Shown here: piece by piece, positions 5,241 to 40,447 of the stretch
Layout of the letters: each line of letters starts with the position of its first letter
Position numbering within the stretch: position 1 is the stretch's first letter
Assembly (NCBI GenBank): GCA_963806535.1
Contig: CAWDYC010000011.1
Location: 96,001-160,000 of the forward strand
Source: Candidatus Bathyarchaeota archaeon
GTDB taxonomy: Archaea; Thermoproteota; Bathyarchaeia; Bathyarchaeales; Bathycorpusculaceae
DNA: 64,000 bases
Reading direction: 5' to 3'
The notes under the pieces: model-generated
Seen by the model: the letters and a program-made list of their open reading frames with translations, nothing else
What the model was told of the DNA's origin: nothing
Databases searched by the model: none
Translations under genes and position numbers: made by a program

Positions 5241-5403
5241 AAATCTGAGCTAGCGCGATAGATGTTCTGATAAATATGTAGACGCGGAAATTCTTGATCA
5301 TTTTAGATAATGCCTGTTTTTAACCCATGGTCCTGCAAAATGATTTAAGAATCGAAAATAACATTAATTGCTTTTATATAACGGCAACTTGAGAGTTGAC
5401 TAC

Positions 5404-6129: not shown

Positions 6130-6183
6130 GTCTAACTAAACAAGATTTAAATGCTAAATGACACAATATAGTACGCGGTTGAT

Positions 6184-17161: not shown

Positions 17162-17448
17162 TTCTCACTTCTCAGCTCTTTTCGATTTTTGCTCTCTCTG
17201 TTAGCCTACGAGTAAGTCAAAGCATGCACAGTTTGCGTATATACTTTGTAGATACAACTTGTTTATGGAAGGTAGTGATAAGACTGTTAACCCTCTGTTT
17301 TCCCTATTGGTTTTGCAAAATTTTACGGCTTGATAGCAATAAACTATAAGGAGAAGTAAATTGGATGGTATATAAGAAAAGAAAAAGCACGGTTAATTGA
17401 CCTCTTCGTTATTGGCTGGCTAAAAAAAACTAAAACAAAATTCCAGGG

Positions 17449-18831: not shown

Positions 18832-19410
18832 AGATAGTACTAATAAGTTTTTGACATTCGTTAAACTTAATTTCTACCTGGAAAAACCTATCGATGCAAA
18901 AACTTGAAGTCTAATTACAAGATTATACACTTGGTTATTTTCTAGGAGCATTCAGATTATAGAGAAATTGTCAATCCAAATCTTTCTGAGATTGATGCTC
19001 ACCTTTTACGTCTTCCATTCCAACTTGCTGGATTCCTTTTACTTCTCTTTGTTTAGTTAGTCCAATTCCATGAAAAACGGATTGTTATTATAACGAGCTT
19101 CGACATTTTAATATCGCTATTATCTATCGATTTTGCTGTCTCAAAAAGACACTTATTCTTGTCTTGTTCAACATTTTATGACTGGAAAATAAGTAGAGGA
19201 AAATTAAATCATCGGAATCTGAGTCCTCACTCAATCTAATTTATGAATACTCAATTTATTGATTAACGAGTGCTCGCTCACTATAGAGGTAACAAGACTT
19301 GAAGAATTACATTTACTCAGCGTACGAGTTGTTGTTGACATTGTCGGAATAGCCGAATACCTTATCAACACGCTCTCAGTTCAAAAACAAACACACAAAG
19401 AGGACAATGT

Positions 19411-20196: not shown

Positions 20197-20201
20197 GTGC
20201 C

Positions 20202-21479: not shown

Positions 21480-22567
21480 CGCACTTTAGATGGGTACCTG
21501 TGAGCGTGACTGTGTTTTCCCATTACCCATGATTCGCACCATGCTTTGTCAGCCTGTGCTCGCTCTGCCAACAACCAGCAACGGTTTTCCTCGAAAATTC
21601 CAGTCTCAATGCGATAGTTGTTTGCGGCTCTCAGGAAAGCTTCTTTGCCTTCAAAATCCCGCTCAACAGCCGCCTTTGGCTCAAGCTCTCGCTGCGAGAG
21701 TTTCAATAAGGCTTCACCTTGATTTTCCCCGCTCAATGCTCCCCAAAAGAATGCGTTCGAAAACTCAAAGTTGGACGCAAGAGCAGCAAAAGTACTCTGA
21801 GCTTCCGAAAACCTGTTTTCCTGGATCATTTTAGTGCCCACTCGAAGTCGCTGCAAATCAGAAACAGAGAAAACCCCCAAGTTTACCCTGAGGTTTTCTG
21901 TAACTGCTCCTTGTGCTCGGCGTGTTTGTAGTCGACTGAGGTCTTCTCTAAAATTTATGTTGATGAAGCTTTTGAGTTCTGGGTCCAGTGTTTTTATGTC
22001 GTTAATTGGAGAAACAAAAAGGATTTTTGATGCGCCTCTTGGAATGTCGTCGGAGCGTGGTCGCTTCAACTTGCAAAGTGTTTCCGCAATTTCTAAGTTG
22101 CTTTTCCTTTTTAGCACCATTAGAAGGGTTTCAAGCCTGCCATTTGGCCACATTGGAACAGCCACTTCAACATCCGCCGCCTCCTTGAACAGATATTCAG
22201 CGACAGATGACTTTAGAAAAGGCATATCACAAGGTAAAGTAAGGCAAAAATCAGCTTTTAGCGCACTCAATCCTGACATAATTGCCACATTAGGACCATT
22301 GATGCCGCCGATTTCTTCGTCCACTACTATCTGAAAGTTTGTTTTGGAATGTTTGTTTAGAATCTGCTCGTATTTTTCTTTTCGTTCCTCATCATTTACT
22401 GATACAGCAATTTCATCAACTATATCTTCAACATTTTCGATCGCGAGAATCAAAAGGGGCTTTCCTGAAAGCTCTGCGAGGGCTTTATCCTGCCAGACTT
22501 TATCGATAGATTGAAATCTTCGGGCTTTTCCACCTGCCAAAATCAATGCAGCCCGTTTAGCCATCAA
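21470..22567 (-). CDS. mobA: Molybdenum cofactor guanylyltransferase with C-terminal helical extension
   Basis: LILAGGKARRF, DKAL, LPCDMPF, FININFREDL, then ~150 extra residues. Confidence 0.85.
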   Translation of the reverse strand: MMAKRAALILAGGKARRFQSIDKVWQDKALAELSGKPLLILAIENVEDIVDEIAVSVNDEERKEKYEQILNKHSKTNFQIVVDEEIGGINGPNVAIMSGLSALKADFCLTLPCDMPFLKSSVAEYLFKEAADVEVAVPMWPNGRLETLLMVLKRKSNLEIAETLCKLKRPRSDDIPRGASKILFVSPINDIKTLDPELKSFININFREDLSRLQTRRAQGAVTENLRVNLGVFSVSDLQRLRVGTKMIQENRFSEAQSTFAALASNFEFSNAFFWGALSGENQGEALLKLSQRELEPKAAVERDFEGKEAFLRAANNYRIETGIFEENRCWLLAERAQADKAWCESWVMGKHSHAHRYPSKVRQA

Positions 22568-22577
22568 AACTCCTCAT

Positions 22578-23141
22578 TTAAGCCGTTTTGTTTTGTGTTA
22601 AATGTTTTTTGACTAGTTCCACAAGTTTTTGCCCATCTTCTGGCACCTTGATTATTGGTATGTTGCCATAGGCTGGGTTAATTGAGTTTTGGGCAACAAT
22701 GCCGGCAATCGCTAATATGGGTTCAACCGTGCCTTCCAAAGTCCGTTTAAGACCATTTTCGTCTACTGCGGTAATAATTTTCGGAACATCTGTTCTTTTA
22801 GCGATTAAACGATGAAAACCTTCAAAGAAAACAATATCCAAATCCTCATCCTCAATCAGCGCAGTCATTTGGTCCAAACTTTCCAGAGACATTTCAGTTT
22901 TCTTTATTATAGCGACTTCTTCAGGAGAAATGGCTACGATTACTTTGGCACCAGCCTTCGCGTATCTCCAAGTGTTCGTACCCTCCTTATCCATCGTAAA
23001 GCCTTTGTGGTGGACATGTTTTATTGAACCGATTTTGTAACCTTGAGCTGAAAGCTGAGAAACTAAGTATTCTAAGGTAACTGTCTTTCCTGAACCGCTA
23101 ATGCCGACAGCGGCAACAACTAAAACCATATTGGGTCTCAC
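22578..23141 (-). CDS. mobB: Molybdopterin-guanine dinucleotide biosynthesis protein B
   Basis: GISGSGKT P-loop, IKHVHH, DKEGTNTWR, FEGF. Confidence 0.92.
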   Translation of the reverse strand: MRPNMVLVVAAVGISGSGKTVTLEYLVSQLSAQGYKIGSIKHVHHKGFTMDKEGTNTWRYAKAGAKVIVAISPEEVAIIKKTEMSLESLDQMTALIEDEDLDIVFFEGFHRLIAKRTDVPKIITAVDENGLKRTLEGTVEPILAIAGIVAQNSINPAYGNIPIIKVPEDGQKLVELVKKHLTQNKTA

Positions 23142-23372
23142 TCTTGCTTGAAGATTAATTGCTTCGTTTTTATAAATTTCGCCTTGATTTTTCTAATATA
23201 TCTTGAAAACATCTATTTTTAAGGGGTTATCGAGAGGTTCGGCTATTAATTTTATTTCCGCTAAGAACATGAAGTTGATCTTAGTCTCTTAGTCCTCAGA
23301 TGGGTAGAAATCTCAATTTTGGTATAGTTTTAAATCAAACTCTGCTTATCCATAGCTATCAAAATAATATCA

Positions 23373-24686
23373 GTGGCTCAGATGGCTCAAAAATTATCAA
23401 AACTCCGTTTTAACCGAAGAATAAAAGCGTTAGTAGCTTTTTCAATTATCGCTGTTTTGTTGTTTTCATTTTTTGCTTTTCTGCCAGGTCAAATGTCAAG
23501 CTTATCGCAATGGTTTGGCAGCATCGGTAAAGGATCAGATTCTAATAGAAATTCTGGACTAATTAAATCTGGTCAACCTGTTAATTCAACTGTGTGGTTT
23601 GGAGTTGCTGGGAATGCTTGGGCGTATTTTCAACCTAATGTAGGTGTTGATGCTAAAACAGGTCTTCCTTACGCTGGAGCCACATATTTTAAAGCTCTTA
23701 CCGATTGGGACTTAGGCGTTTATATCCAAGCCGTAATTGACGCTCAGAAAATAGGCTTGATAACGACCGATGGCACTTGGGGTTCTTACGCAAGATTGAA
23801 CAAGGCTTTAAATTATTTAGAAAATCGACCGCTTAATGATACTACCCATTATCCTTTCTGGTTCTACGACGCAACAAATGGAAAAAACTACAATTCATTG
23901 TCCGACAAGGCAACAGAGAAAGTTGACGTGGTTGATACTGGACGATTATTTGTTGCCCTTAACAATCTTAAAACATACAACCCAAGCTGGGCTCAAAGGA
24001 TAAACAACTTCGTTTACAATATAAATGGTAACAGATCAGATTACGCCGCCATAATTCCTGGCCTTGAAAGTGACGCGAACTCAAATAGTATTTATGGCTA
24101 CTATTTTGATAGCGGTTACGCAAATTTTTGGCCTCAACAACTCGGTAACGTTCCAGCTAGCATAATAAACAATATATCTAACTCATCTACAATCACAACT
24201 TATGGCAACGTTTCACTGCCTCAGGCTCCTCTTGCATGTGAGCCACTGCTGTGCTCAATTTTCGAGGTAAACAATACTAATTCCGAATTGATGACGCTGG
24301 CGAACCAGGTTTATCTTGCCCATGAAGCCTACTATAACACGAAAGGTCAATACGTAGCTTTTAGCGAAGGAAACGGCTTTTCAAGCCAGTATCTGTGGGA
24401 ATGGGTAGTTGGGCCTAATGGCACTCCATGGGAAATAACTACGTCTGGAGGCGCACAATATTCGGGCAATGCCATTATTTACAGTAAAATAGCTTTCAGT
24501 TTCTTAGCCCTTTACAATGCAACATACGCTCAAAACACAATAGTCTACCTTGAAAAATATCTTCCCGCTCCTTCAAACGGCTACTCCGACGGCGTTGATA
24601 CTGCTGGCCAAGTAGTTCCAGGGTCTGGCAGCAACACAAACGGTATGATTTTGGACGCAGCTTTGTACGCATTACAGAATAAATAG
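23373..24686 (+). CDS. Secreted DUF3131-like (alpha/alpha-barrel glycoside-hydrolase-like) protein
   Basis: N-terminal TM/signal; AWAYF...TGLP, TDWDLGVYI, DTGRL, AFSEG, NTNGMIL. Confidence 0.65.
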   Translation: MAQMAQKLSKLRFNRRIKALVAFSIIAVLLFSFFAFLPGQMSSLSQWFGSIGKGSDSNRNSGLIKSGQPVNSTVWFGVAGNAWAYFQPNVGVDAKTGLPYAGATYFKALTDWDLGVYIQAVIDAQKIGLITTDGTWGSYARLNKALNYLENRPLNDTTHYPFWFYDATNGKNYNSLSDKATEKVDVVDTGRLFVALNNLKTYNPSWAQRINNFVYNINGNRSDYAAIIPGLESDANSNSIYGYYFDSGYANFWPQQLGNVPASIINNISNSSTITTYGNVSLPQAPLACEPLLCSIFEVNNTNSELMTLANQVYLAHEAYYNTKGQYVAFSEGNGFSSQYLWEWVVGPNGTPWEITTSGGAQYSGNAIIYSKIAFSFLALYNATYAQNTIVYLEKYLPAPSNGYSDGVDTAGQVVPGSGSNTNGMILDAALYALQNK

Positions 24687-24786
24687 CGCTAATATACCAA
24701 TAATTACGGTAAATGCGGAAATAGAATTGGCAACATTGACAAAGAAGCAACCAAAAAACCCAACCGAATCTCTTAAAAGATATTCA

Positions 24787-25269
24787 TTAGCAAAATCTGC
24801 CATCGTCTTTAGTGCTTTTAAGTTTGCTTATTTTGTCGTTGAACCAGCCTATTTTTGTGGTCCTTCGGTAGTCAAATTGCGGAACATAGGGCTTAATGTC
24901 TAAAAGTGGTGTTCCATCTAAAATATCTAAGTCCTGGACATGCAGGATGTTGTTTTCGACCTTTGTAAGGCATACTGTAGAGATGCCGATTTTATTGGGT
25001 CTAGCAGGTGAGTGTGTGGCGAAAACCCCATGGAGTTTTTCATCGAGGAATGGTTTCACCAGTAAGTAACCGTCTTTTACTAGGTGAAAATGGTAAAGCA
25101 AAATAATGTGGGAAAAACCTTCTATGTCTCGCAAGCCCTCTGCGTATTCAGGGTAAATTTCCAAGGTACCTTTGATACCTTTTGATGCTGCTGCTTGGAT
25201 TGGAACATTTTGTGGTTCCTTAAACGGCGAATGTATTACGCCAATGGATTTGTAAGTTATTACGCTCAA
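24787..25269 (-). CDS. tsaA: TsaA/TrmO (YaeB) family SAM-binding tRNA methyltransferase
   Basis: IGVIHSPF, GFSHI, GVFATHSPARPNKIG, LDGTPLLDIKPY. Confidence 0.9.
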   Translation of the reverse strand: MSVITYKSIGVIHSPFKEPQNVPIQAAASKGIKGTLEIYPEYAEGLRDIEGFSHIILLYHFHLVKDGYLLVKPFLDEKLHGVFATHSPARPNKIGISTVCLTKVENNILHVQDLDILDGTPLLDIKPYVPQFDYRRTTKIGWFNDKISKLKSTKDDGRFC

Positions 25270-25476
25270 CTATACATTGCTCCCTCGAAATGGTTATTGA
25301 ATTATTCAAGGTCATTTAAAACAAAATAAGGAATTGTAATTTAAGATTCTGATGTCGGTTCAAAAAAATATGGGTTTCCGTTTCTCAACCCTATATGTAT
25401 GATACTTTTTCATTGTGAATAGGATCTTTATTTTTTTTGCAAATCGTAATTGAAATAAAATGCTCAGTTTCGTTTT

Positions 25477-25578
25477 TCACCGGACTTCGATAAGTGAAAT
25501 GCCTTTGACCCAATCGTGAGGCGCAATTTGGTCGCCCATGACTAGTCGAACTGGCCCTTCGCCTCCCGACGATAGACC
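25477..25578 (-). pseudogene. 3' remnant of a molybdopterin-binding oxidoreductase-like gene
   Basis: Translates as GLSSGGEGPVRLVMGDQIAPHDWVKGISLIEVR*, resembling the GPxRLV...WVKxxxxIEV C-terminus of Oxidored_molyb-type domains; no upstream coding part. Confidence 0.55.
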
Positions 25579-25651
25579 AGCACCTCACCATACCAACATG
25601 ATGAGCGCATACCCGCCGTAAAATCCTCTCTGAAAATTAAAGCCCAAATTA
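25579..25651 (+). repeat. Diverged 73-bp copy of an internal fdhD segment (19738-19810)
   Basis: 65/73 identical by manual alignment; STSPYQHDERIPAVKSSLKIKAQI vs STSPYQHDERIPVVKSCLKIKAQI. Confidence 0.9.
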
Positions 25652-25928
25652 GGCGTCATTAGAGCTATGTCCATGGTTGTCCTTTTTGAGAAGTTTTTCT
25701 GCAATAATATTTCTGGTCTCATCGAAACCAAGATGTTAAAATTGTGTATTATAAAGAAATAAATGTTAAGGTAAAGTTCGTTCTAATTCAACAAGAAATA
25801 AACCCTTCATCGTCCGAAATGAGTAAAAACTATTTAACTTTTCAATTCTACGGTGAATATTATTAGAAAAGTTGAGTATATCGTAATTCAAACGCCTCTA
25901 TTCTTAAATTTAATGAGATAAAAAACCA

Positions 25929-27032
25929 TTAATTGCCGTCGTCAGCAAAAATGTTTAGTGAATCCGCGTTGAAACAAACATGCACATGGTCTCCCACCAT
26001 GAGGCCTAAGTTTTTAATAACGCTTAAAGAAATCCTAGTTTTTAATATAAACCCCACGTCTACCGTAACCTGCGCATTTGACCTCATCTGAACCATTTCT
26101 ATAACGACACCTTCGATGAAGTTGACTCCGTTTTCTTGGATATCGATATCGTCGGATTTTGTAAGTTTCACGTTTTCGGGCTTGATGGTTGCAATAACAT
26201 TTTTTCCCAATAGATTGGGCGTTGATTGTGATAATAGTATCGAGCCGTTTGCTTCAATTTCCAACAACCCCCCGCGGGTTTTGGTAGCCTTGCCCTTAAA
26301 TGAGTTAACTCCAAGAAAATTCGCAACGTACCCTGAATTTGGTTTATCAAAAAGGTCTGCTCCGCTACCTATTTGTTGAATGCTTCCATTTCCCATAACA
26401 GCTATTCTATCCGACATTATGAAAGCTTCGGACAAATTATGCGTAACATAAACAACAGTAATTTTAAGCGACTGCAAATAATTTTTAAGTTCCAACCGAA
26501 AAGATTCACGAAGCTGGGGATCAACTGCCGAAACAGGTTCATCTAAAAGCAAGATTTGCGGTTCAGTAGCTAAAGATCTTGCCAACGCAATACGTTGCTT
26601 TTGTCCGCCGCTAAGCTGGCTTGGATAAAACCTTGCGTATTCCCGAAGACCTACAAAATCAAGCAGGTCACTGGTTCTTTTTTTAACTTCTTGTCTAGGT
26701 AAATGCAGTGCTTTTAGTCCGTATGCTACGTTGTCTTTAACTCGCATATGAGGAAAAAGAGATACCGTTTGGAAGACATAGCCAACTTTGCGGTCTGAAG
26801 GTTTAAGATAAACTTTTTTTGTGCCCGCCCTTCCGCTGACTAAGACATCATTAATGTAAATATTGCCCTCGTCTTGTCTTGTTAGACCTGAGAGTATGTT
26901 TAACAGCGTTGTTTTTCCACAGCCATTTGGACCTAGCAGAGACAAGATTTCCTCCTCTTTGACTTCAAGACTGAGTTTTCCCAAAACTTTTTTTTCGCCA
27001 AAGGATTTTGAAATTGAATCAATCTTGATCAT
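25929..27032 (-). CDS. modC: Molybdate/tungstate ABC transporter ATP-binding subunit with TOBE domains
   Basis: GPNGCGKT, LSGGQKQR, LLLDEP, C-terminal TOBE-like region; follows modB. Confidence 0.88.
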   Translation of the reverse strand: MIKIDSISKSFGEKKVLGKLSLEVKEEEILSLLGPNGCGKTTLLNILSGLTRQDEGNIYINDVLVSGRAGTKKVYLKPSDRKVGYVFQTVSLFPHMRVKDNVAYGLKALHLPRQEVKKRTSDLLDFVGLREYARFYPSQLSGGQKQRIALARSLATEPQILLLDEPVSAVDPQLRESFRLELKNYLQSLKITVVYVTHNLSEAFIMSDRIAVMGNGSIQQIGSGADLFDKPNSGYVANFLGVNSFKGKATKTRGGLLEIEANGSILLSQSTPNLLGKNVIATIKPENVKLTKSDDIDIQENGVNFIEGVVIEMVQMRSNAQVTVDVGFILKTRISLSVIKNLGLMVGDHVHVCFNADSLNIFADDGN

Positions 27033-27847
27033 TTTTTAGCTCCGAACCTTTTCTGTTCAAGAAGTTTGATGGTGATAAGGACTGCGAATGCAATGGCTAT
27101 TAAGATAATGGATAACATGACCCCCGCCAATGGATCAGAATATAGGAACACATAGATTGCAAGTGGCATTGTCTGAGTTATGCCTGGTAAGTTTCCTGCA
27201 AACATTAAGGTTGCCCCAAACTCACCCAAAGCTCTTGCCCACGTCATCATTGACCCAGTAACAATAGCCCGTATCGATAGTGGGAAGGTGATGGTGAAAA
27301 ATACTCTGACGCGGCTATCCGTTAACATTTTGGCGCTGTTTATGATGTCCTTATCCATACTTTCAAAACCAGTTTTTGCTGACCGTAAAAGAAATGGAGA
27401 CGCCACAAAGGTTTCAGCAATAATAACGGCGATGGTGTAGCCTGGAATAGTTAAGCCCAAACTGTTCAAAATCGGACCTAATAGTCCTTTTGGAGCAAAG
27501 GCGTAGAGCAAGGCTACACCGGCAACTGCAGGCGGCAGAACGATAGGTAAATCTATTATCGTATCAATAACTGATTTGCCGGGAAATTTTCTTGTTGCCA
27601 TAAAATAAGCGGTTGGAACTGCTAGGACGAATGCAATGAAAGTAGCAACAGCGGATGTGTATAAACTAAGTTTTATGGTGTTTATGATTTGGGTATTATG
27701 TAGTTGAGTGTTAACTTGACTTGGGTTGATTCTTAAGAAAATTGCTGCTATAGGCAGCGCTACAAAAAGAAAGTATGTTAATACTATAAGACCCAGAATA
27801 ACGATTATTATTTTATTTGAAAGCGTGTTAGTAATGTTGTGTTTCAT
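27029..27847 (-). CDS. modB: Molybdate/tungstate ABC transporter permease
   Basis: DLPIVLPPAVAGVALL, WARALGEFGATLMFAGNLPG. Confidence 0.92.
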   Translation of the reverse strand: MKHNITNTLSNKIIIVILGLIVLTYFLFVALPIAAIFLRINPSQVNTQLHNTQIINTIKLSLYTSAVATFIAFVLAVPTAYFMATRKFPGKSVIDTIIDLPIVLPPAVAGVALLYAFAPKGLLGPILNSLGLTIPGYTIAVIIAETFVASPFLLRSAKTGFESMDKDIINSAKMLTDSRVRVFFTITFPLSIRAIVTGSMMTWARALGEFGATLMFAGNLPGITQTMPLAIYVFLYSDPLAGVMLSIILIAIAFAVLITIKLLEQKRFGAKK

Positions 27848-29598: not shown

Positions 29599-30457
29599 AT
29601 GAACAGACAACAACACAATCCTCGAAAAACAACAACTAAACCCACAAGTAAAACTCCTAAAAATCCACGCGCCATCCATAGCCCAAAAAGCCCAAGCAGG
29701 ACAATTCGTAATCCTAAAAGCCCACGCAGACAGCGAACGAATCCCCCTAACCCTCTCATCCTGGGACAAAGAAGAAGGCACAATCACACACATATTCCAA
29801 GAAATAGGCTATTCAACAACCGAACTGGGCACCCTGGAAGTGGGCGAAAAAATTATAAACCTAGCAGGTCCCTTAGGAAACCCCAGTGAAATCAAAAACT
29901 TTGGGGTAGCCGCCATTGTATGTGGAGGACTCGGCACAGCAGTAGCTTACCCAGTAGCTAAAGCGCTTAAAGAAGCTGGAAACAAAGTCATATCCATAAT
30001 GGGTGCACGAACCAAAGATCTATTCATTTTAGAGAATGAAATGAGCGCAGTCTCTGACGAAATATTTTTTACATCAGATGACGGCACAAAAGGTCAAAAA
30101 GGCTTTGTAAGCGACGTTTTGAAGTCTTTGATAGCTAAAAATTATAACTTTAACATAGTTTTCGCTATCGGACCTCCAATAATGATGAGTGTAATAGCAG
30201 ATATCACCCGTCCATTTGGCATAAAAACCATCGCCAGCCTAAACCCAATAATGGTTGACGGTATGGGCATGTGCGGCGCATGCCGAGTATCCATTGGAGA
30301 CAAAACCCAGTTTGCATGCGTTGACGGTCCTGAGTTTGACGCTCACCAAGTTAACTTTAAAGAGTTAATGCAACGGCTTAAAAGTTACTGCACTGAGGAG
30401 AAACATGTTTTGACAGTTCAAACTCCTGGAGGTACATGCCAATGTCACGGTCAGTAA
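29599..30457 (+). CDS. sudB: NfnA/SudB-like FAD/NAD-binding [2Fe-2S] subunit; start obscured by probable 1-nt insertion
   Basis: Open frame from ~29603 TDNNTILEK...AQAGQFVIL...ERIPLTL, GPLG, GGLG, GPPIMM, MVDGMGMCGACRV, CVDGPEF. Confidence 0.85.
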
Positions 30458-31909
30458 AAGAAGAAACTAAAGTTCAGAATCGCTTTCAAGCAATTGAAGT
30501 AGCCAAACAGGAACCTTCCGTGCGGTCGAAGAATTTTGAGGAAGTCGTTTTAGGCTACACAGAAGAGCAAGCATTAGCTGAAGCCTCCAGATGCCTAAAC
30601 TGCCCAAACCCCAAATGCGTTACCGGTTGCCCAGTAGGCGTTGACATTCCAGCGTTTATTTCCTGCATCAAAAAAAGAAAGTACCACGAAGCCATCTCAA
30701 AAATTAAAGAAAAAAACAGTCTCCCCGCCATTTGCGGACGAGTTTGCCCTCAAGAAGAGCAATGCCAAAAAAACTGTATAATGGGCAGAAAAGGCGAATC
30801 GGTTTCCATTGGGCGACTTGAACGGTTTGTCGCTGACTTTGAACATGAAAAAGGCATAACGCCTAAGCCGGCAGAGGCATGGAATGGCAGAAAAGTAGCC
30901 GTGGTCGGCGCGGGTCCAGCAGGGTTAACTGTAGCAGCGGATTTAGCTAAGTTGGGGTACCGTGTGGTTATTTTTGAGGCGCTTCATCTTGCCGGAGGCG
31001 TATTGGTTTATGGTATTCCAGAGTTCCGATTACCCAAACGCATTGTTCAAGCTGAAGTTGACTACATCGAGAGGTTAGGCGTTGAATTGCAGACTGATTC
31101 CTTGATTGGCAGACTTTACACTATTCCGGAGTTGTTGGCGCAAGGTTTCGACGCAATCTTCATTGGCACCGGCGCAGGCTTACCAAAGTTTATGGGTATA
31201 CCTGGCGAGAACCTCTGTGGAATCTACTCAGCCAACGAATTTTTAATACGCGTCAACCTCATGAAGTCCTATCAGTTTCCAAAATCCAAAACACCCATAC
31301 ACATGGGCAAAAAAGTGGTAGTCATCGGCGGCGGCAACGTAGCGTTGGATTCTGCACGGTGCGCTCTACGGTTGGGTGCCGAAAGCGTTTCGATTGTTTA
31401 TCGCCGCTCAAGAGAGGAAATGCCAGCTAGAGAAGAAGAAATTAGCAACGCTGAGGAAGAAGGAATCACAATTCAAGTTCCTTGCTGCCCCAACACAGTT
31501 CATAGCTGATGACCATGGGCAAGTTAAAGCTATGGAATATGTAACAATGAAACTTACTGAACCAGACGCGACGGGCAGAAGCAAACCAGTTCCAATCAAA
31601 GGTTCAGAAACTACCATAGATGTTGACACAGTCATAGTTGCCATAGGACGTACGCCTAACCCAATCATTCAAAGCACCACTGAAGGGCTAAAAACGTTAG
31701 TCGGTGGCATCATAGCGGTTGATAAAGACACGGGCCTCACCAGTTTAGAAGCGGTTTACGCTGGCGGCGACATAGCTACAGGTGAATCTACTGTTATTAG
31801 CGCCATGGGTTCAGGCAAAATAGCTGCCAAAAGCATACACAACTACCTCAACAGCAAAAAAGAAAAAGTGCTATTGGTGCACTCCGCCAAGGCAACTAAA
31901 CAGCCTTAA
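30436..31909 (+). CDS. sudA: NfnB/SudA-like (GltD-like) NADPH-dependent Fe-S flavoprotein; frameshift near 31470
   Basis: CLNC...CVTGCP, CGRVCPQEEQC, GAGPAG, YGIPEFRLPK, GGGNVALD; continues in ORF 31376..31909 (YAGGDI, AMGSGK). Confidence 0.88.
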
Positions 31910-31917: not shown

Positions 31918-32964
31918 TTATTCTCCGCTTAAGCCGCTTGAATCTGGATTTGATGCTTTAAAGGCACGGTTAACCGTTATTTCAGCCATGCTAAATGCGC
32001 AGTGACAAATTCTTTTTATGTCATCGCGGATTGAGCAGATGCCGCAGACTAAGATCAGAACTTTTTGGTGGACCAGTAAAGGATTTTGTGGCTATTTCCA
32101 TTTCAGCTTTGTCCATTGTTTGTCTGTACTTCATAATTTCAACTGCGGCAGCGACATCTTTTGAGAAGAAGGCTTCAATTCCTTTAATGTAAAGCTCCAA
32201 AACCTCTCTTCCAGTAGAAATCATAATCGACAAAACTTCATCCGGAATCTTCTGTTTTGCACCATTAAGCATAATAATGTGACGCGCAATGTCGGCAGCA
32301 TAATCTCCTGCATACTCCATACGGTAAACAAGAATTTGATGATCCATACAATCTAACGGATCAACATGTAACTCGTTGGCTAAGATTGGATCTTGGGCGG
32401 CGTTACGGAGAATTCTGAGGATAAAGAAGCCAAAGTGGTCAACATCGTCGTCCAAGGACATTACTGATTTTGCTAGTTCGATATCGTTGCTTTTTAGTGA
32501 GTTGATGGCTCCTTCAATCATTGAACGACGAGATAAGGTGCATACGTTGTATCGCTTGCTCCAAAGAAGCCTTCGACTCATCCATGAGGCTTTGAATGTA
32601 AACGCATTTTGAGTCAGCTTCCATAACTCTCATGTAGAGCCTGCCCGCCATGCGGCGAATCGCTTTCGTTTGCGGTACTGTAAAAATTTTTTCGGACGTT
32701 AGCATGATGCCTGAATAGCCATTTAGGAAGGCCCCAAGGATTTTCTGTGATTATGAGTAGTTCTTCTTCGTTTTGTCCAACGCTAAGTGTTATTTCTTTT
32801 GGTTCCGATTTTTTGAGGGCGCCGGGGTAAACGACTAAGGAGCGGTCTCGTTGGATGTTGAATGAAACTGTGTCGCCTTTTTTTAGGTCATTTAGTTGCA
32901 TCCATTCTTTCGGAAGAGATATAACTAGTGATGATTTGCCTAACGACATGATTTTTCGTTCCAT
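31918..32964 (-). CDS. AbrB/MazE-PhoU family regulator; several apparent frameshifts
   Basis: MERKIMSLGKSSLVISLPKEW (AbrB), PhoU repeats DDDVD and MEYAGDYAADIA, split over three track ORFs. Confidence 0.8.
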
Positions 32965-33091
32965 AAGCGTTTCTCCAATTAACATTGCAAAGTATTAACA
33001 GTACATACGTTACCTATTCAATATATATTATACCGCTAAAATCATGAGAAGGAAAACGCCAAATCAGGGGTAAATATTAAAAGAATAGCGA

Positions 33092-34126
33092 TTATGCCTC
33101 AATGATCTTAGCATCTTTGAGTACGTTAACGTTTCCACTGCCCTTTGCCACATAACCAACTTCAAAATGCCTAACTTTACGCTTATCCAACTCACTCAAC
33201 AAATCATCCGCATCCTGTTTAGATACAGCAATAAGCATGCCACCTGCAGTTTCCTTCGCTTCACCCTGCAACAAGGGGTAACCGAAAATTTCCGTCAACA
33301 CGGGTGTCCCTCGAATCACCGGCAGCTGGTCTATAACGATGTCAACTTTGCTCAGCATAGCCATGTTGGCGGCATGACCTTTCAATCCAAAGCCTGTGAC
33401 GTCTGTGGCTGCATGCACGGAGACTTTCTGCATAGCTTCAGCGACAGGTTTGTTGGAAGTTATCATTCCTTTGATGGCTTCATCAACTGCAGTGTCAATT
33501 AAATCCTCAGGTACGTCATTGAGAAGTTCCTTGCCCTCTTCTTCCTTTCGCAAACGGTAAGCAGCCATTGCGGGCGCAATCCCAAGTGGCTTAGTCAAAA
33601 ACAAACGGTCACCCACCTTCGCGCCACGGGTGTAAACTATTTTTTCGGGATCGCTGATGCCTGTTGCTGCTCCTCCAATAATTGGCCAAGGATTCCGAAT
33701 TGTGTGTCCACCAACCACAGGGGCACCCATCTCACGGCAAAAATCACCAAATCCTTTCAGCATCCCCACAGCCAATTCGTCAGGCATATTCTCGGGAAAA
33801 GCCATAATCGACAACACGCTGACAATGTTTGTAACTGCTAAAGCATAGATATCGCTGGTAACGTTGCTTCCTGCAATTCTGCCTTGAATTTCTGGTTCAT
33901 CAACCATGGGAGTGAAAAAATCAAGCGTATTTAGGACAGCAAGGTGGTCTGCGATTTTGACAACGCTGGAATTTTCCCATGGACCAGCCAACACTTCCTC
34001 ACTGAACCCCTCTGACAAACCAGCCTTATCTAACAAACCGCCCAGCTGATACTGCGGAAGCTTGCAGCTACAGCCGTGAACGGGAACGACCTTAGTTAAT
34101 CGGTAATCCAATTTCGTTGCCTTCAA
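33092..34126 (-). CDS. selD: Selenide,water dikinase (selenophosphate synthetase), Cys form
   Basis: HGCSCKL (codons TGT AGC TGC), DFFTPMVD, GGHT, LTKPLG, TDVTGFGLKGH, ETAGGML. Confidence 0.92.
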   Translation of the reverse strand: MKATKLDYRLTKVVPVHGCSCKLPQYQLGGLLDKAGLSEGFSEEVLAGPWENSSVVKIADHLAVLNTLDFFTPMVDEPEIQGRIAGSNVTSDIYALAVTNIVSVLSIMAFPENMPDELAVGMLKGFGDFCREMGAPVVGGHTIRNPWPIIGGAATGISDPEKIVYTRGAKVGDRLFLTKPLGIAPAMAAYRLRKEEEGKELLNDVPEDLIDTAVDEAIKGMITSNKPVAEAMQKVSVHAATDVTGFGLKGHAANMAMLSKVDIVIDQLPVIRGTPVLTEIFGYPLLQGEAKETAGGMLIAVSKQDADDLLSELDKRKVRHFEVGYVAKGSGNVNVLKDAKIIEA

Positions 34127-34195
34127 ATTTATTCATTATTACTCTAGGAACTCTAAAGATAAAAATATTCAATCCCAAAAAAATGGAGACGTGGT

Positions 34196-35488
34196 TTACG
34201 TCTGCTTTTTCCCTTGGATGATTTCGAGGAAGGCTTCGATTCTTGTTTTTATCTGCTCGGAATCGCCCATAGCATAATCCGTTTCAATCTTAAGCATAGG
34301 TAAATCTTGAGCTTTCAAAGCTCGCTCAACTTTTACTCCTTCAACATTGTAGTCATGACAGTTCTGAAGTGTGTAATATATTACACCTTCTGCTTTGAAT
34401 TGCTTAGCAAGCTTAGTTACGCTTTCTAGTCTTTTATCGTTAGGTGTGAAGCAAGCGCAGGGAATCTGGCTGTATTTCTCTACTATAGCCCAAAGCAAAT
34501 CCTCTAAGCTTTCACCTTTCGGCTCAACCAAATCTGTAAAGTACCGTGTGCCTATGCAACTTTCTTCAACAACCACTGAAGCACCAGCGGTTTGAGCTAT
34601 GCTGTGGACTTTCCAATTGGGAATTGCCATAGGGCAGCCTGAAATCATTAGTCTTGGAGCATCTTTGTTTGTAACGCCTTCACCTTTCCGCACACGCTCG
34701 TCGAGTTCATCACAGAGCTCATTCACTTTTGCTGTGAACCGTTTTACGTCATCGTTGAAGCTGATTTGGAAAATAAGCAATGCATCTAAGCCGCTTATTG
34801 GTGATGGATTATTTTCCCGTAAATCAGACAAACGCTTCAGCGCTCTGCGTTTGCTGTTTATTAATTCAATGGATTCTTTTAGTTTTTCAGCAGTTATCTT
34901 GTTCCCTGTAAGCTCTTCTAATTTAGCTTGAAAATCCTCCAGCTCTTTAAACCAGAAAGCTTTGCCCTTTGCAGTGTATGGCTTGTGGGGAATTTCTAAG
35001 ACGTAAGTTGGGATAAGCTCGTTGAGGAGTTCATAAACTTTCTTTTTGCCGTCGCATGTTGTTTCTCCAACCACCAAATCACTAGACTGGAAATATGGGC
35101 ATGTCCGGTTTAGTTTGAAGCCGTAGAATGATTTAACCAAGGGACATAGGTTTCGGGGTAAAACTGCTTCTGCGTCTGGAACGGAAAAGTCTGCGCCGCC
35201 GCATAAACCCACCATTGTAGCATTTGCAGCGTAAGCAAGTTCCTCTGGTGCGTAAATGCAGAAAGCTCCAACGACCTTGTTTCCTGCTGCTCTTTGATCG
35301 TTGAGTTCTTTGATTCTTAAGCCGTGGATTTCTGAGACGACGAAGTCAAAGTAACCCATGCCTTTTGGCCTATTTTTTTGGGATAAAAATACAGCGGTGT
35401 AGTATTGACCTAGAATGTTTAAGAGTTGGTTATGTTTTTCGAGGTCCATTCCGAGGTTTTTCCACATTGGGACATATTTTTCTGCCAT
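34196..35488 (-). CDS. Double-cubane-cluster-type reductase (2-hydroxyacyl-CoA dehydratase D family)
   Basis: FCIYAPEE, GLCGG, PRNLCPLVKS, CPYF, GETTCDGKKK, SGCPM, EESC, PCAC, LKIETDY, TRIEAFLE. Confidence 0.82.
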   Translation of the reverse strand: MAEKYVPMWKNLGMDLEKHNQLLNILGQYYTAVFLSQKNRPKGMGYFDFVVSEIHGLRIKELNDQRAAGNKVVGAFCIYAPEELAYAANATMVGLCGGADFSVPDAEAVLPRNLCPLVKSFYGFKLNRTCPYFQSSDLVVGETTCDGKKKVYELLNELIPTYVLEIPHKPYTAKGKAFWFKELEDFQAKLEELTGNKITAEKLKESIELINSKRRALKRLSDLRENNPSPISGLDALLIFQISFNDDVKRFTAKVNELCDELDERVRKGEGVTNKDAPRLMISGCPMAIPNWKVHSIAQTAGASVVVEESCIGTRYFTDLVEPKGESLEDLLWAIVEKYSQIPCACFTPNDKRLESVTKLAKQFKAEGVIYYTLQNCHDYNVEGVKVERALKAQDLPMLKIETDYAMGDSEQIKTRIEAFLEIIQGKKQT

Positions 35489-35529
35489 TACATCACATGC
35501 CGATAAGAAGCGTATTACACATCATATTT

Positions 35530-35566
35530 ATTAGAATTTCTGATAAGTATTATTAGAAAAGTTGAT
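35530..35566. promoter_or_regulatory. Tandem LysR-type boxes upstream of the double-cubane reductase gene
   Basis: ATTA-GAATTTC-TGAT (35530-35544) and ATTA-GAAAAGT-TGAT (35552-35566), T-N11-A cores 22 bp apart. Confidence 0.5.
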
Positions 35567-35570
35567 TTGA

Positions 35571-35795
35571 TCAACGCTTTTTAATTAAAACCCTAAATTC
35601 TGCACCAGACTTGGAGGCTTCAACAACCTCGTGACCATTATTCTTAACCCAACGCTGAACATTATCAAACTCCAACTCTCCCTCACCAACAACCTCTAGT
35701 AGATGACCAGAAGCCATGCTTTCCAGCTTACGCTTCGTAAAGGCAACAGGCATAGGACACATTTTTCCTTTAACATCTAACTTTTCAAATGCCAA
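35571..35795 (-). CDS. TusA/SirA/YedF-family sulfur (or selenium) carrier
   Basis: LDVKGKMCPMP motif, 74 aa. Confidence 0.9.
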   Translation of the reverse strand: MAFEKLDVKGKMCPMPVAFTKRKLESMASGHLLEVVGEGELEFDNVQRWVKNNGHEVVEASKSGAEFRVLIKKR

Positions 35796-35804
35796 AATAT
35801 CCGC

Positions 35805-36156
35805 CTAAAACACAATCACTTTCTCGCTGTTAATTGTCCACTCAACAAGTTCATGTACCGTTGCAATTTTTACTCCATCAAGTAAGTCTGCTTGAGCTAA
35901 GCCGCGAGCATCCGCGCAAACGATGCAGGCTTTGACTTCAGCGCCTCCTTTCATTAGGTCTTCCAGCATTTGGCCGTAATTGGTTAAACCTTGAGAGGGG
36001 TTCTGTCCTTTCTTTGCTAAGTAGACGCCGTTTTCAAACAGCCAAATTCTTACTTTGTGCCCTTCTATATCGCAGGTCCATGCAAATCGTAAGTGCTGAT
36101 AGTGCACGTTCTTTTGCGTACGGTGCTTCATAAATTATTATTGTGAAAGTTACCAA
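35805..36156 (-). CDS. DsrE-family protein; apparent frameshift near 36090
   Basis: TTG start MVTFTIIIYEAPYAKERALSAL, shifted into RFAW...WLFENGV...CIVCADARG. Confidence 0.82.
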
Positions 36157-36188
36157 GTCTTCAACCTCAATTTTACTGAATATCCCTT

Positions 36189-36203
36189 ATTAAAAAAACT
36201 AAT
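36189..36203. promoter_or_regulatory. LysR-type box in the divergent dsrE/lysR intergenic region
   Basis: ATTA-AAAAAAC-TAAT, same ATTA-N7-TRAT pattern as 35530-35566; region is AT-rich. Confidence 0.4.
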
Positions 36204-36286
36204 ATAATTCTTTCTATCAAAACAAATAACATATAAACATTATACAGAAACTAAATACAAAACAAAAAGGGGTTCTAACAAAGCAC

Positions 36287-37220
36287 ATGGAAACCATAAG
36301 ATTCGATTACCTCAAAACATTCCTCACAGTCGCAAGAACTCGCAGCTTTTCAATTGCGGCAAAAGAGCTTGCAACAAGTCAAGGCACAGTAAGCCACCAC
36401 ATAGCAGCACTAGAAGCATATTTCGATGCAGAACTGTTCAAACGCACAGCCAACGGCGTAGAGGTCACCGCAGCAGGAGCAACGCTCAAAGAAACCGCAG
36501 AAAAAGTATTGCGAGAAGCTCAAAATGCAAAAGCCCAAATTTCCTTAGCTAAACAAAACCTATCTGGAACCATAAGCATAGCTGCAAGTACCATACCAGA
36601 AGAGCACATAATTCCCAGTCTAATTTCTGAGTTCCAAAATCAGTATCCTCATGTGAAATTTAAAATTAAAGCACAAGACAGCCTCAATAGTCTAAGCAGT
36701 TTGCAAGCTAATAGTGTTGATTTTGCAGTAGTTGGCACTTTGAAGGGTTTTGAAGAAGAATTTGGGTTTATTCAAGTTGGGCAAGATGACCTTGTTCTTA
36801 TTGTACCCTGCAATCATGAATTAGCCAAGCAAAAGTCAGTTGCGCTTAATGAAATCGTCAAGTTTCAATTTATTGATAGAGAAGAAACTTCTGGAACTAA
36901 GAAAAGAACTCGAGTGCTTGCTAGAAAACAACAAGCTGAGCTTAGAAAAATTGAAGGTAGCTTTGGAGCTTGGGAGCACTGAATCAGTAATAACGGCTGT
37001 TTCAGAAGGAAGAGGCGTAAGCATAATCTCATCTATTGCGGCAAAAAAAGCCTACGCAGCAGGCTTAATTAAAATTGTTAAAATAAAGGAAGCCAAAAGC
37101 CCAAGAAAACTTTGTATTGTAAGACCTAAAAGACCACTTGTAAAAACATCCGAGGTTTTTTGGGAATTTTGTAAGGGCTATAAATTCAAAAATGAAGCTA
37201 TAACATGCAATGCCGATTAA
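36287..37220 (+). CDS. LysR-family regulator (CysL/selenium-associated type); frameshift near 36900
   Basis: SFSIAAKELATSQGTVSHHIAALE HTH, AASTIPEEHIIP, REETSGT, ELGSTESVITAV. Confidence 0.88.
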
Positions 37221-37234: not shown

Positions 37235-37564
37235 TTATTCGTCTTCGTCGTCGACCTTCACCAATATTTTTCCTGACTTAATTTTCCACTCGTAGCTTTT
37301 TAGCTTCATCGACGGGTCATCCTCGTATTCGCCGGTTTTGAGGTTAAAGCGCCAATCATGACAAGGACAAATAATTACAGGTCCGTCAAGAGATCCCCCA
37401 GAGAATCCACAAGCCATGTGTGGACAACGATTATCAATAGCGTAAATTTGACCTAACTGTTTAATCAGTAAAACAGGCAACCCTTCAACTCTTATCAGCT
37501 TCATTGTGCCTTCCTGCAATTCTTTTTCTTCTAAAACAGAAATAAAATTGTCTGATTCAGCCAT
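37235..37564 (-). CDS. Rieske [2Fe-2S] ferredoxin
   Basis: CPH...CPCHDWRF. Confidence 0.9.
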   Translation of the reverse strand: MAESDNFISVLEEKELQEGTMKLIRVEGLPVLLIKQLGQIYAIDNRCPHMACGFSGGSLDGPVIICPCHDWRFNLKTGEYEDDPSMKLKSYEWKIKSGKILVKVDDEDE

Positions 37565-38538: not shown

Positions 38539-39903
38539 ATGAGTGAAGATTACTGTAAGTTTTTGCTTGAAGATTTTTTGAAGACTTCATTTTCAACAGT
38601 AAAGGTGCTAGTTGAAGGCGCCGCGTCTTCAAAGGGCCAAAACAGCAACCGTAAAGTTACGTTATTCCGTTATGTCAACAGCAAAAAGGTCTCTTTTTCA
38701 TTCTCTGATGAACGTTTCTATTTGCGGGGCTCAGTTGAGTATACGAATCCGCAGTTGACAGTTGAGGAAGTTCAAGGTATTGTCGGGACCCGCCTGCTTG
38801 AAACTTGTGGCAACTATTTTTATGAGCATGGTTTACATCAACCTGATAATGGCGACGTTTCTGCGCTCTTAGAGTTGCTTAAGAAACCTACACAAGGTTA
38901 TATCGTGCCTTTCTTGCTTAATACTGATGATGTGGAAGCTGACCGTTATTCGATGAATCCGCTCAAAGAGTCAATCGTGGATAGTGGTCAAAGTGCTTTT
39001 CCAGCAGCGAACGTTAAAACGGATGAGTTGAAAATCGATGAAGCATATCTCAAAAAATACGATGGCTCATTAATCTCTCAAAAAGAAGCAGTACTTATCG
39101 AAGAAATGCTTCATGCTAGCAATGGCTCTTATCTTGATTTGGTGGATTCAATAAAATATTCGCAGCTAAAGGAGCTGTCGGCGTTTTTTGGGATGGATCT
39201 CTCGCTTTACACATTGCGTATGCCACTTTCTACCTTGCAGTCTGAGAACAAAGACGGCTTGCTCCATTACATAATCCGAGAAAGCAACCAAGATTATGCA
39301 TCAATTGAGGAATCATACACTTGTATGGGTCGCAGTATGAAAAACCGAACAACGCTTTTGACAGTGCCGCATTCCACGAAAGGTTTCGGTTCCAAACGCG
39401 CAGCCAGAGGCAAATTGCACTTTGAAAACAACAAATTAATTGATGCAACAGTCAAATACAAAACTACTCCACTATATCCTAACGCCATGGACCCAGAAGA
39501 CATAGCGGTCGCCATTTGTGAGGACAGTTTCAGCGTTCCAGGCGAAAAACTTGCTGATTACAGTTTTGCCGAAACCCCTTCTTCACCACAGTTTTTCCTC
39601 TATTCAATTGGTTCTCCTGAAGACGCAACTGTTTGGCACGGCGTGGGCGCCTTCGCGGCACCACAACTATTACAGAGTTATCGTTCTGGCCGAATAGCCT
39701 GCAGAGAAGGAAAACTCGTTAAGAATTTAAGCCAAAAGTTCAATATCAAAGTGGATGTTCCCTTGCAATTTAACCTTGCACCCGAAGGCATATGGAGTCA
39801 CCCAATCCACCGCAATATCGACGCGAGCATAGGCAGCGTAGATGATCTTCCAGATTTGGCTCATCGAGGAATGAAACTTGAATACCTCGCATCTTTCAAA
39901 TAG
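38539..39903 (+). CDS. Hypothetical 454-aa soluble protein, no recognised family
   Basis: Long intact ORF starting 3 bp after the GNAT stop. Confidence 0.8.
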   Translation: MSEDYCKFLLEDFLKTSFSTVKVLVEGAASSKGQNSNRKVTLFRYVNSKKVSFSFSDERFYLRGSVEYTNPQLTVEEVQGIVGTRLLETCGNYFYEHGLHQPDNGDVSALLELLKKPTQGYIVPFLLNTDDVEADRYSMNPLKESIVDSGQSAFPAANVKTDELKIDEAYLKKYDGSLISQKEAVLIEEMLHASNGSYLDLVDSIKYSQLKELSAFFGMDLSLYTLRMPLSTLQSENKDGLLHYIIRESNQDYASIEESYTCMGRSMKNRTTLLTVPHSTKGFGSKRAARGKLHFENNKLIDATVKYKTTPLYPNAMDPEDIAVAICEDSFSVPGEKLADYSFAETPSSPQFFLYSIGSPEDATVWHGVGAFAAPQLLQSYRSGRIACREGKLVKNLSQKFNIKVDVPLQFNLAPEGIWSHPIHRNIDASIGSVDDLPDLAHRGMKLEYLASFK

Positions 39904-39919: not shown

Positions 39920-40447
39920 TTGACTGCGATAGAATATATAGGATTTAGGATACTGCGATTGCTAAGAAAATTACCATTTAACATACTAGGCGTTGGAAAC
40001 CGTAAATTAATTTTCGCTGAGTTCTTCAAGGATTTCGAAAATGTTGAGGCGGTAAAAGGCATTTTCGGCGAAAAAACAAATGAAGTCTTAAATCATCTTA
40101 CAGTAGAACTTAGCTGGATTTTCGGCTACATGTACGTGGATGGCTCCGATGGGCACCTTGTTATAAGCAAAAACTACCTCAACAACGGCGACAAAACAGA
40201 CATTTACCTTGACTTAATCCATGAACTTTGCCATGTTAAGCAATACATGGAAGGAAAAGAGCTCTTTGATGCAAGATATGACTATGTGGAACGACCCACC
40301 GAGATTGAAGCTTACCGTTATTGTGTTCAAGAAGCAAAACGCCTGGGTCTGAGTGATGAAAGAATCAGATGCTATCTCAGGACTGAATGGATGAGCGATA
40401 ACGACTTCAAAAAACTGGTTAAATCAGTTAACATTTCAATTTCCTAA
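39920..40447 (+). CDS. Small HExxH zincin-like protein
   Basis: LIHELCHVKQ and downstream PTEIEAY; start uncertain. Confidence 0.7.
   Translation: MTAIEYIGFRILRLLRKLPFNILGVGNRKLIFAEFFKDFENVEAVKGIFGEKTNEVLNHLTVELSWIFGYMYVDGSDGHLVISKNYLNNGDKTDIYLDLIHELCHVKQYMEGKELFDARYDYVERPTEIEAYRYCVQEAKRLGLSDERIRCYLRTEWMSDNDFKKLVKSVNISIS

Follow-up and report, generated by a model that had tools for sequence, protein, structure and literature searches.

We found that a 64-kb stretch of DNA from a Candidatus Bathyarchaeota archaeon (the window; positions 96001-160000 of contig C11 in genome G000, which spans 2.95 Mb in 12 contigs and is 91.75% complete and 3.41% contaminated) carries an operon that joins selD, the gene for selenide water dikinase (selenophosphate synthetase), to genes for a double-cubane-cluster protein (DCCP) and for two carriers of the TusA and DsrE families, all facing a divergent gene for a LysR-type regulator of the selenium-associated kind. 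The SelD encoded here is a true orphan with conserved gene linkage, as supported by whole-genome searches and by synteny across related genomes. To our knowledge, selenophosphate has four uses, namely selenocysteine (Sec), 2-selenouridine, the labile Se-Mo cofactor and selenoneine-type small molecules. The hosts of this clade are widespread uncultured soil and peat archaea. Strong selection maintains in them SelD, both carriers and the selenium regulator without the known uses, and this probably signals a further use of selenophosphate.

We propose that the genes form an operon for selenium activation, controlled by a LysR regulator of the selenium type, a scheme to which, taken with all its steps, we give about even chances. 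The regulator would bind operator boxes ahead of both dsrE-tusA and DCCP-selD, such that the two units respond to selenium status. The DsrE and TusA proteins would carry selenium as a cysteine-bound perselenide and pass it to SelD, which would convert the delivered selenium to selenophosphate with ATP. DCCP would be an optional accessory, energised in trans by an activase pair encoded on contig C9, or by an in-operon activase in three relatives, and would furnish SelD with selenide by reducing selenium species that are refractory or bound to a carrier. The resulting selenophosphate would serve a Sec-independent use outside the four known traits.

Components, synteny and operators of the operon

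The selD gene (33092..34126, minus strand) codes for a Cys-type protein of 344 aa that passes the cut-offs of two selD equivalog models, NF010705 (344.1 bits against 291) and TIGR00476 (239.4 against 125), which bears out its initial annotation as an archaeal selD; its closest solved structures are selenophosphate synthetases (172 bits). A locus scan taking one genome per species returned 66 loci with a selD relative, nearly all from metagenome-assembled genomes (MAGs) titled Bathyarchaeia or Bathyarchaeota. The N-terminal loop of the window protein reads VHGCSCK, and its HG[C/U]SCK form is unchanged in 65 of 65 related loci; the roles of its residues (Cys or Sec, then Lys) are presumably those of E. 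coli SelD. Orthologues at 70-87% identity serve Sec-decoding genomes, and by this orthology the window SelD is predicted to make selenophosphate from selenide and ATP. A TGA (Sec) codon replaces the first loop Cys codon in three selD loci (L070, L073 and L075), whose genomes all have SepSecS; SelD is thus itself a selenoprotein there (L070, L073, L075 / L095:9965-10999), and the Cys is kept in the other 11 Sec-decoding relatives. Across a class sample of 201 genomes, selD occurs in 16, including G000 and 10 of the 11 other genomes of its genus, and is missing from all 16 genomes that represent the other genera of its family.

The two carriers are encoded upstream on the same strand. The tusA gene (35571..35795, minus) specifies a YedF-like TusA-family protein of 74 aa (PF01206, 68 bits against a gathering threshold of 28.6) with its active Cys13 in a CPMP motif, and this CPxP cysteine is kept in 57 of 57 relatives. 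Its best NCBIfam match is the YedF model PRK11018 (49.3 bits, under the cut-off of 79), ahead of the TusA-proper model (29.2 bits), and it scores 36.6 bits against TIGR03527, the two-domain YedF model with a cut-off of 110. The dsrE gene (35805..36156, minus), with its true start at a TTG at 36156, specifies a DsrE-family carrier of 116 aa in relatives (PF02635, 66.3 bits against a gathering threshold of 22.7) with a CxxC motif, CIVC, that is retained in 58 of 58 relatives. DsrE gives no match to TIGR03527 at E <= 0.01, and both the window fragment (22.5 bits) and the intact orthologue of locus L026 (44.1) lie below the cut-off of 89.25 for the TusD/DsrE equivalog TIGR03012. The SirA-like and DsrE-like modules are separate genes here rather than one two-domain protein of the YedF form; the operon shows an archaeal split counterpart of YedF.

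The divergent lysR gene (36287..37220, plus strand) codes for a selenium-metabolism-associated LysR-type regulator (LysR_Se or HrsM-like; NF040786) of 310 aa in relatives. In the window it is broken into two open reading frames (ORFs) by a 1-nt insertion near 36893-36909 relative to 7 of 7 relatives, and the N and C parts score 182.8 and 62.4 bits against NF040786 (cut-off 250); the intact orthologue at L026:5338-6270 reaches 260.8. The window dsrE likewise holds a 1-nt insertion near 36085-36096 relative to 7 of 7 aligned relatives. Both genes lie where the initial annotation had placed them, but each departs from the ORF list on which it drew, through the TTG start and the 1-nt insertions. 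A gltD-like gene for an NADPH-dependent oxidoreductase (30436-31909) is also split, into overlapping ORFs of 357 and 177 aa, which makes it the third apparent frameshift within 8 kb and suggests assembly indels. Split matches recur in many related loci, such as L023 with its DCCP in four pieces, and many of these come by title from the same MAG series. Since the gltD-like gene and these same-series loci are likewise split, an assembly error is plausible, and we regard the insertions in dsrE and lysR as likely, though unproven, assembly indels.

The arrangement of four co-oriented genes and a divergent lysR, described in the initial annotation, stands with its coordinates, and its linkage is strongly conserved across Bathyarchaeia. 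Among the 63 loci having at least 3300 nt upstream of selD, tusA and dsrE are each present in 61, lysR and a small Rieske gene each in 55, and DCCP in 40. Where DCCP is missing, tusA directly abuts selD across a spacer of mostly 13-50 nt; the core is therefore a lysR divergent from dsrE-tusA-selD, with DCCP as an optional insert between tusA and selD. This adjacency of DCCP shifts at least 16 times across the selD tree.

The initial annotation had also noted shared ATTA-N7-TRAT boxes. These are confirmed by their conservation, which decides the matter, as the window-wide enrichment alone is weak (15 matches against 8.4 +/- 3.2 expected, with 5 of 100 shuffles reaching 15). The divergent promoter/operator (36187..36207, unstranded) contains a palindromic ATTA-N7-TAAT box (36189-36203) that overlaps a TATA-like TTATAT. 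In 33 of 47 loci an exact box (AT[CT]A-N7-TAAT or ATTA-N7-TRAT) occupies the same position between lysR and dsrE, and a one-mismatch variant can be made out by eye in 13 of the remaining 14. Ahead of DCCP-selD, an internal promoter/operator (35530..35566, minus) has two ATCA-N7-TAAT boxes (35552-35566 and 35530-35544) 22 nt apart, followed by an AT-rich TATA-like stretch. Because the tusA-DCCP spacer has at least one box in 40 of 40 DCCP-bearing loci (two in 27 of the 40, mostly 22 nt apart) and the 22 loci without DCCP, where tusA abuts selD, have no such box, the DCCP insert brings its own copy of the operator. The boxes conform to what we take to be the T-N11-A form of LysR sites, their overlap with TATA-like elements would suit a repressor, and the LysR protein is predicted from this sequence context to bind them. 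The operon thereby supplies a defined putative operator motif for the LysR_Se family.

Selenium, selection and the missing consumers

Sec genes accompany selD in several relatives. In L051 the order is dsrE-tusA-selD-SepSecS. Three other Bathyarchaeia families have a head-to-head arrangement of selD with a PSTK-SelB fusion and SepSecS; one of them shows the order selD-DCCP-activase and another tusA-selD. The SepSecS gene of L051 (8081-9344), directly after selD, is split into two ORFs. In the Sec islands L089-L092 (G020, G017, G050 and G047) tRNA-SeC lies beside SepSecS, and L089 also has a 731-aa PSTK-SelB fusion gene; Sec decoding with such a fusion is known in some Bathyarchaeota (PMC9499178).

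The initial annotation had offered a Se/S relay, of which the selenium part is supported and the sulfur part is not; it had also pointed to a SelD-like family proposed for sulfur metabolism in Crenarchaeota, which is not borne out for this gene. In a sulfur-based system SelD, TusA and DsrE would handle sulfide or persulfide, for example as thiophosphate, in the manner proposed for SelD-like proteins of hyperthermophilic Crenarchaeota (PMC9312934). These proteins share with the window SelD an AIR-synthase-like fold and, according to the initial annotation, SirA/DsrE neighbours; TusA and DsrE are classical sulfur-relay folds, and the searches of G000 found no selenium consumer. The window SelD, however, scores 45.1 bits against the cut-off of 250 for the related sulfur-metabolism model NF038049 while passing both selD models, and its orthologues at 70-87% identity function in Sec decoders, three of them being themselves selenoproteins. 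The regulator belongs to a selenium-associated family, and TusA is closer to YedF than to TusA proper. We accordingly hold a sulfur system to be improbable; the comparisons support a module that would handle selenium rather than sulfur.

The initial annotation had seen no known selenium end-use genes near the operon, and this is correct for the window and extends to searches of the whole genome. ARAGORN found no tRNA-Sec among the 39 tRNAs of G000, although it did find tRNA-SeC next to SepSecS in 4 of 4 Sec islands of relatives used as a control, and the best match to RF01852 (41.6 bits against a cut-off of 47) falls on a tRNA-Ser(tga) gene. No match in G000 was obtained with the SepSecS model TIGR03531, nor by tblastn or blastn with the SepSecS and tRNA-Sec of a relative, and the PSTK-SelB of a relative retrieved only GTPase paralogues at about 32% identity; several genes that flank the Sec island in a relative are present on contig C5 of G000 at 68-94% identity. 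SelA, YqeB (TIGR03309) and YqeC (TIGR03172) likewise gave no match in G000, and SelU/MnmH (TIGR03167) gave none at E <= 0.001, its control being positive in M. jannaschii. The model TIGR04348, which we take to represent the SenB-type glycosyltransferase of the selenoneine/selenosugar trait, reaches at best 32.9 bits in G000 against a cut-off of 300 and has no match at E <= 1e-30 in the 50 relatives described next; no control genome was positive with it, and this result is not counted as an absence.

The consumer searches were extended to 50 related genomes, taken in from 60 first picked. SelU/MnmH and YqeC are found in none of the 50, and SepSecS exceeds its cut-off in 14, which leaves 36 Sec-less. 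Two relatives whose records are titled single chromosomes (G027 and G028) are without SepSecS, SelU, YqeC and tRNA-Sec, with two Sec-positive controls scoring 64.5 bits for tRNA-Sec. Neither of the two findings that the initial annotation had named as speaking jointly against it, a complete Sec or SelU pathway elsewhere in the genome and a lack of conserved linkage of selD in related genomes, was observed.

Sec machinery in 14 of the 50 relatives and its absence from the rest, the selD loci tied to Sec genes (L051 and other families), and the 1-nt insertions in the window dsrE and lysR could together suggest the decaying relic of a lost selenocysteine system. A quick selD tree of 54 rows places all 14 Sec-positive genomes in one 22-row clade, whose other members are 5 genomes without Sec and 3 untested ones; a 13-row clade is purely Sec-less, and a 16-row clade including the window is Sec-less among the genomes tested. 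Its root hangs on one long noisy row (L086), and we claim no direction of gain or loss from it. Ratios of nonsynonymous to synonymous substitution (dN/dS) were computed by the Nei-Gojobori method with pairs of saturated or very small dS dropped, and are rough as dS is still saturated among the rest; for selD in the Sec-less clades this leaves 175 pairs from 27 sequences, one retained selD pair having a ratio of 2.48. Between the Sec-less clades and the Sec-positive genomes, the ratios are 0.054 and 0.069 for selD, 0.067 and 0.064 for DCCP, 0.108 and 0.100 for tusA and 0.071 and 0.114 for dsrE. The robust contrast is that of dN near 0.1 with dS above 1.4, dS being about 1.5-1.8 in the Sec-less clades. 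Because the catalytic loop is unchanged and dN/dS stays at about 0.05-0.1 in the Sec-less clades, at the level of the Sec-positive genomes, the operon is not a relic; the invariant TusA cysteine and DsrE CxxC argue in the same direction, and the split gltD-like gene and the split matches in relatives make assembly indels the likely cause of the frameshifts. We rate decay as very improbable.

The double-cubane protein as a possible supplier or acceptor of selenium

The DCCP of the operon ('type A'; 34196..35488, minus; 430 aa, HGD-D fold) scores 500.3 bits against NF040772 (cut-off 350) and aligns with the structures PDB 6ENO/7YYL at 512 bits across residues 8-424, which confirms the double-cubane-type reductase proposed at this place. 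Its seven cluster cysteines (C77, C96, C115, C145, C311, C344 and C377, with spacings of 18, 18, 29, 165, 32 and 32) are unchanged in 33 of 33 relatives and fit the motif CX19CX18-19CX29CX166-170CX32-34CX32C given in the preprint of Haft & Gwadz (bioRxiv 10.1101/2022.07.06.499078), with two spacings one residue short. These comparisons show the window protein to be a close orthologue of the crystallised double-cubane reductase of Carboxydothermus hydrogenoformans (DCCP with its reductase DCCP-R; 6ENO, 7YYL), with which it shares the seven cysteines and the predicted need for an ATP-driven reductase of the BcrAD/BadFG type.

The ATP-dependent partner had been noted as absent here, which is right for the window, as no activase gene lies in its 64 kb; the organism, however, has activases elsewhere in its genome. 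A DCCP paralogue in G000 (C9:3538-4935), 35% identical to the window DCCP and slightly below the NF040772 cut-off at 341 bits, is directly followed by two BcrAD/BadFG activase genes (5019-5735 and 5732-6643). This set of paralogue and activase is near-universal in the 50 relatives, an activase being detected in 48. The high-scoring DCCP linked to selD is without an activase of its own except in three relatives (G043, G046 and G047), which have a 257-aa activase (TIGR00241, 290.8 bits) between DCCP and selD. A further activase pair lies at the extreme start of contig C12 (G000:C12:4-1184), and one of the copies contains a TAA in frame; this pair may represent a duplicate or a strain variant, or the contig may be a contaminant.

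The association of DCCP with selD extends beyond the genus. In the class sample, NF040772 matches above 400 bits occur in 7 genomes, six from the genus and one from another family, and all 7 have selD; 22 genomes without selD contain only lower-scoring DCCP paralogues. Linkage of DCCP, activase and selD is seen again in bacteria and in another family of Bathyarchaeia. Among 73 bacterial loci with DCCP orthologues at 49-57% identity, an activase follows DCCP in 65, and selD lies within 6 kb of it in at least 7, in several phyla and varied orders, a count that is a lower bound as some loci end early. Examples are lysR / DCCP-activase-dsrE-selD (L113), lysR / selD-DCCP-activase (L134) and tusA-DCCP-activase-selD (L166). 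A search for DCCP homologues listed, among its best 120 matches, close Bathyarchaeia relatives only.

Both mechanisms raised in the initial annotation, one in which carriers and reductase feed SelD and one in which SelD puts selenium into a metallocluster, are viable. Within our proposed scheme DCCP supplies selenium to SelD, a part to which we assign a chance somewhat short of even. It would fit the at least 16 changes of adjacency, the lack of any tie to the Sec trait (DCCP is beside selD in 10 of 14 Sec-positive and 24 of 36 Sec-less genomes), the 12 of 50 relatives with neither DCCP beside selD nor SepSecS, and the occurrence of DCCP in selenium-salvage clusters. Because these 12 relatives keep dsrE-tusA-selD, selenophosphate needs another consumer in any case, and DCCP acts like an accessory whose presence depends on the niche.

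Alternatively, DCCP might itself be the consumer: SelD, fed by TusA and DsrE, would supply selenium for incorporation into the double-cubane cluster, for instance at the bridging position of an [8Fe-9S]-type cofactor, and the operon would be a maturation system for a selenium metallocluster. DCCP is the sole candidate acceptor encoded in the operon, and its gene immediately precedes selD in 40 of 63 loci; it would account for the orphan SelD of the 24 Sec-less relatives in which it is beside selD; and its recurrent linkage with activase and selD in another family and in bacteria fits this role. High-scoring DCCPs are confined to selD-positive genomes in our class sample (7 of 7), and 955 of 970 lie in SelD-containing assemblies in the Haft & Gwadz preprint (bioRxiv 10.1101/2022.07.06.499078), with nine of the 15 exceptions being methanogenic archaea. 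However, an occurrence of DCCP only alongside selD is predicted equally if DCCP supplies SelD. selD persisted through at least 16 gains or losses of the adjacency, the 12 relatives without DCCP or SepSecS would still need another consumer, and the lower-scoring paralogue in the 22 genomes without selD indicates that the fold itself is independent of SelD. The solved DCCP structures are, moreover, described as [8Fe-9S]. On balance we consider DCCP an unlikely consumer. A broader variant, in which most species of the genus run a fifth, Sec-independent selenophosphate trait, with SelD loaded by TusA/DsrE giving DCCP a selenium-bridged [8Fe-9S] analogue and another acceptor taking its place where DCCP is missing, seems to us slightly more doubtful still.

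Several points weigh against the selenium-activation operon with DCCP as a supplier. It is not obvious that reducing Se(0) or a perselenide calls for a potential as low as that of an ATP-driven double-cubane enzyme. None of the selenophosphate consumers searched for was found in G000, which leaves the proposed pathway without a known end, and a YedE-type selenium transporter was not found in it either; the genome is 91.75% complete. As 12 of the 50 relatives have neither SepSecS nor a selD-linked DCCP and yet keep selD, DCCP cannot explain the retention of selD. Should the insertions in the window dsrE and lysR prove real, this strain has broken carriers and a broken regulator.

A second DCCP, 65% identical to that of the window, lies in a relative (L094:6743-9767 of G047) beside a B12-binding corrinoid protein and a URO-D-type methyltransferase, an arrangement similar to that of the type I mlp/Sdm clusters, for which a role in methyl-selenide salvage has been proposed. 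DCCP, DCCP-R, selD and selR (LysR_Se) are accessory genes in such clusters (PMC10418091). Methyl-selenide salvage as the selenide source in G000 is rejected, as the genome has no URO-D methyltransferase match and its B12-domain match is weak; unlike those clusters, the window operon works without that system.

Related systems and neighbouring genes

LysR_Se, YedF and the genome-level co-occurrence of DCCP with SelD have been described before; this analysis adds the fusion of DCCP with selD at the operon level in archaea and the large archaeal clade with an orphan SelD. We found no paper on the operon or on an orphan SelD in Bathyarchaeia, though such loci might be listed in the supplements to Lin et al. 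2015 and to the Haft & Gwadz preprint, which fall outside this search. The Haft & Gwadz preprint concerns the same NF040772 family, reports high-scoring DCCPs only alongside SelD and raises a selenium-holding cluster as a formal possibility; it reports genome-level co-occurrence and adjacency to the SAO locus in Sec-using bacteria, whereas in these Sec-less archaea DCCP shares a single operon with selD, TusA and DsrE, with LysR_Se as the proposed regulator. The operon gives double-cubane proteins a concrete, testable partner, and the question posed in the preprint narrows to two options, DCCP releasing selenide for SelD or SelD putting selenium into DCCP.

Lin et al. 2015 (PMC5322559) describe LysR_Se-type regulators beside selD, with a conserved proline in the substrate-binding domain, and tie to SelD the TusA/SirA-like and DsrE-like modules that make up the two domains of long YedF. 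According to that paper, archaea lack YedF, and LysR_Se orthologues are almost confined to organisms that decode Sec; here, in contrast, the modules are separate genes ordered dsrE-tusA, below the YedF cut-offs and with YedE not found, and most carriers of the regulator are Sec-less. The same paper lists orphan SelD in four bacteria and in Methanoplanus petrolearius. Those genomes are alike in having selD without genes for Sec, 2-selenouridine or the Se cofactor, and differ in that the orphan state here covers most of a species-rich genus (36 of 50 tested), with a conserved operon for which purifying selection was computed.

Methanococcus maripaludis raises its TusA and TusD transcripts by 4.5-4.6 log2-fold on selenium depletion, and its HrsM is a LysR-type selenium regulator (PMC11097638). 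Both systems combine an archaeal LysR-type selenium regulator with a pair of TusA and TusD (DsrE family) proteins, the pairs being alike by family rather than by established orthology; Methanococcus, however, decodes Sec and switches between Sec and Cys isoenzymes, whereas the present genome offers no selenoproteins for such switching, and its regulator gene stands beside selD. An activase directly follows DCCP in 65 of the 73 bacterial loci; in the window selD takes that place.

The window also contains genes for molybdenum or tungsten enzymes, fwdB, fwdA, fwdC, fdhD, moeA and a mobA-like gene with an ABC transporter (13099-27847). The initial annotation had suggested that the module might serve these adjacent enzymes, which is not borne out. 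The products FwdBAC, FdhD, MoeA and MobA would in that case employ a labile selenium ligand, like Se-dependent molybdenum hydroxylases, and for this there is a precedent in that Haft and Self, in 2008, reportedly explained orphan SelD by a Mo-cofactor trait. These genes are, however, 11-20 kb away with unrelated genes in between (ApeA-HEPN, DUF3131, gltD-like and PhoU). Of 5 relatives checked, fwdB lies within 20 kb of the operon in 2 (at 14 and 18 kb) and more than 100 kb away in 3. YqeB and YqeC were not found in G000, nor YqeC in any of the 50 relatives, and FwdB is without an in-frame stop even in the two Sec-positive relatives checked. A service to Mo/W enzymes is, in our judgement, the most improbable of the alternatives.

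The formylmethanofuran dehydrogenase cluster fwdB, fwdA, fwdC, followed by fdhD, moeA and the mobA-like gene, occupies 13099-22567, and its FwdB has a Cys at CCSVCHG. A Sec codon between 13099-14649 and 14650-16347 is ruled out, as a TAA followed by an ATG separates the two genes, fwdB and fwdA. A 460-aa defence-type protein with an ApeA N-terminal domain and HEPN_Apea (17449-18831) is encoded between the fwd and fdhD genes.

On the far side of lysR, a small Rieske [2Fe-2S] protein of 109 aa (37235..37564, minus; PF00355, 72.7 bits) is encoded by the gene that adjoins lysR in 55 of 63 loci and is not seen in the bacterial DCCP-selD loci; it is a conserved neighbour whose membership in the module is uncertain. 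Downstream of selD, ORFs for an AbrB/MazE-like and a PhoU-domain protein (32021-32985) look like a single gene split in two, and such a pair lies near selD, mostly just downstream, in 27 of 66 relatives. A search of sequencing runs returned one DNA run, containing 0.05 of the sampled words, and no RNA run. Further along the window, two proteins have no Pfam match: one of 454 aa (38539-39903), 69-92% identical in the relatives where it is seen beside a GNAT gene, and one of 175 aa (39920-40447), which has a HELCH motif.

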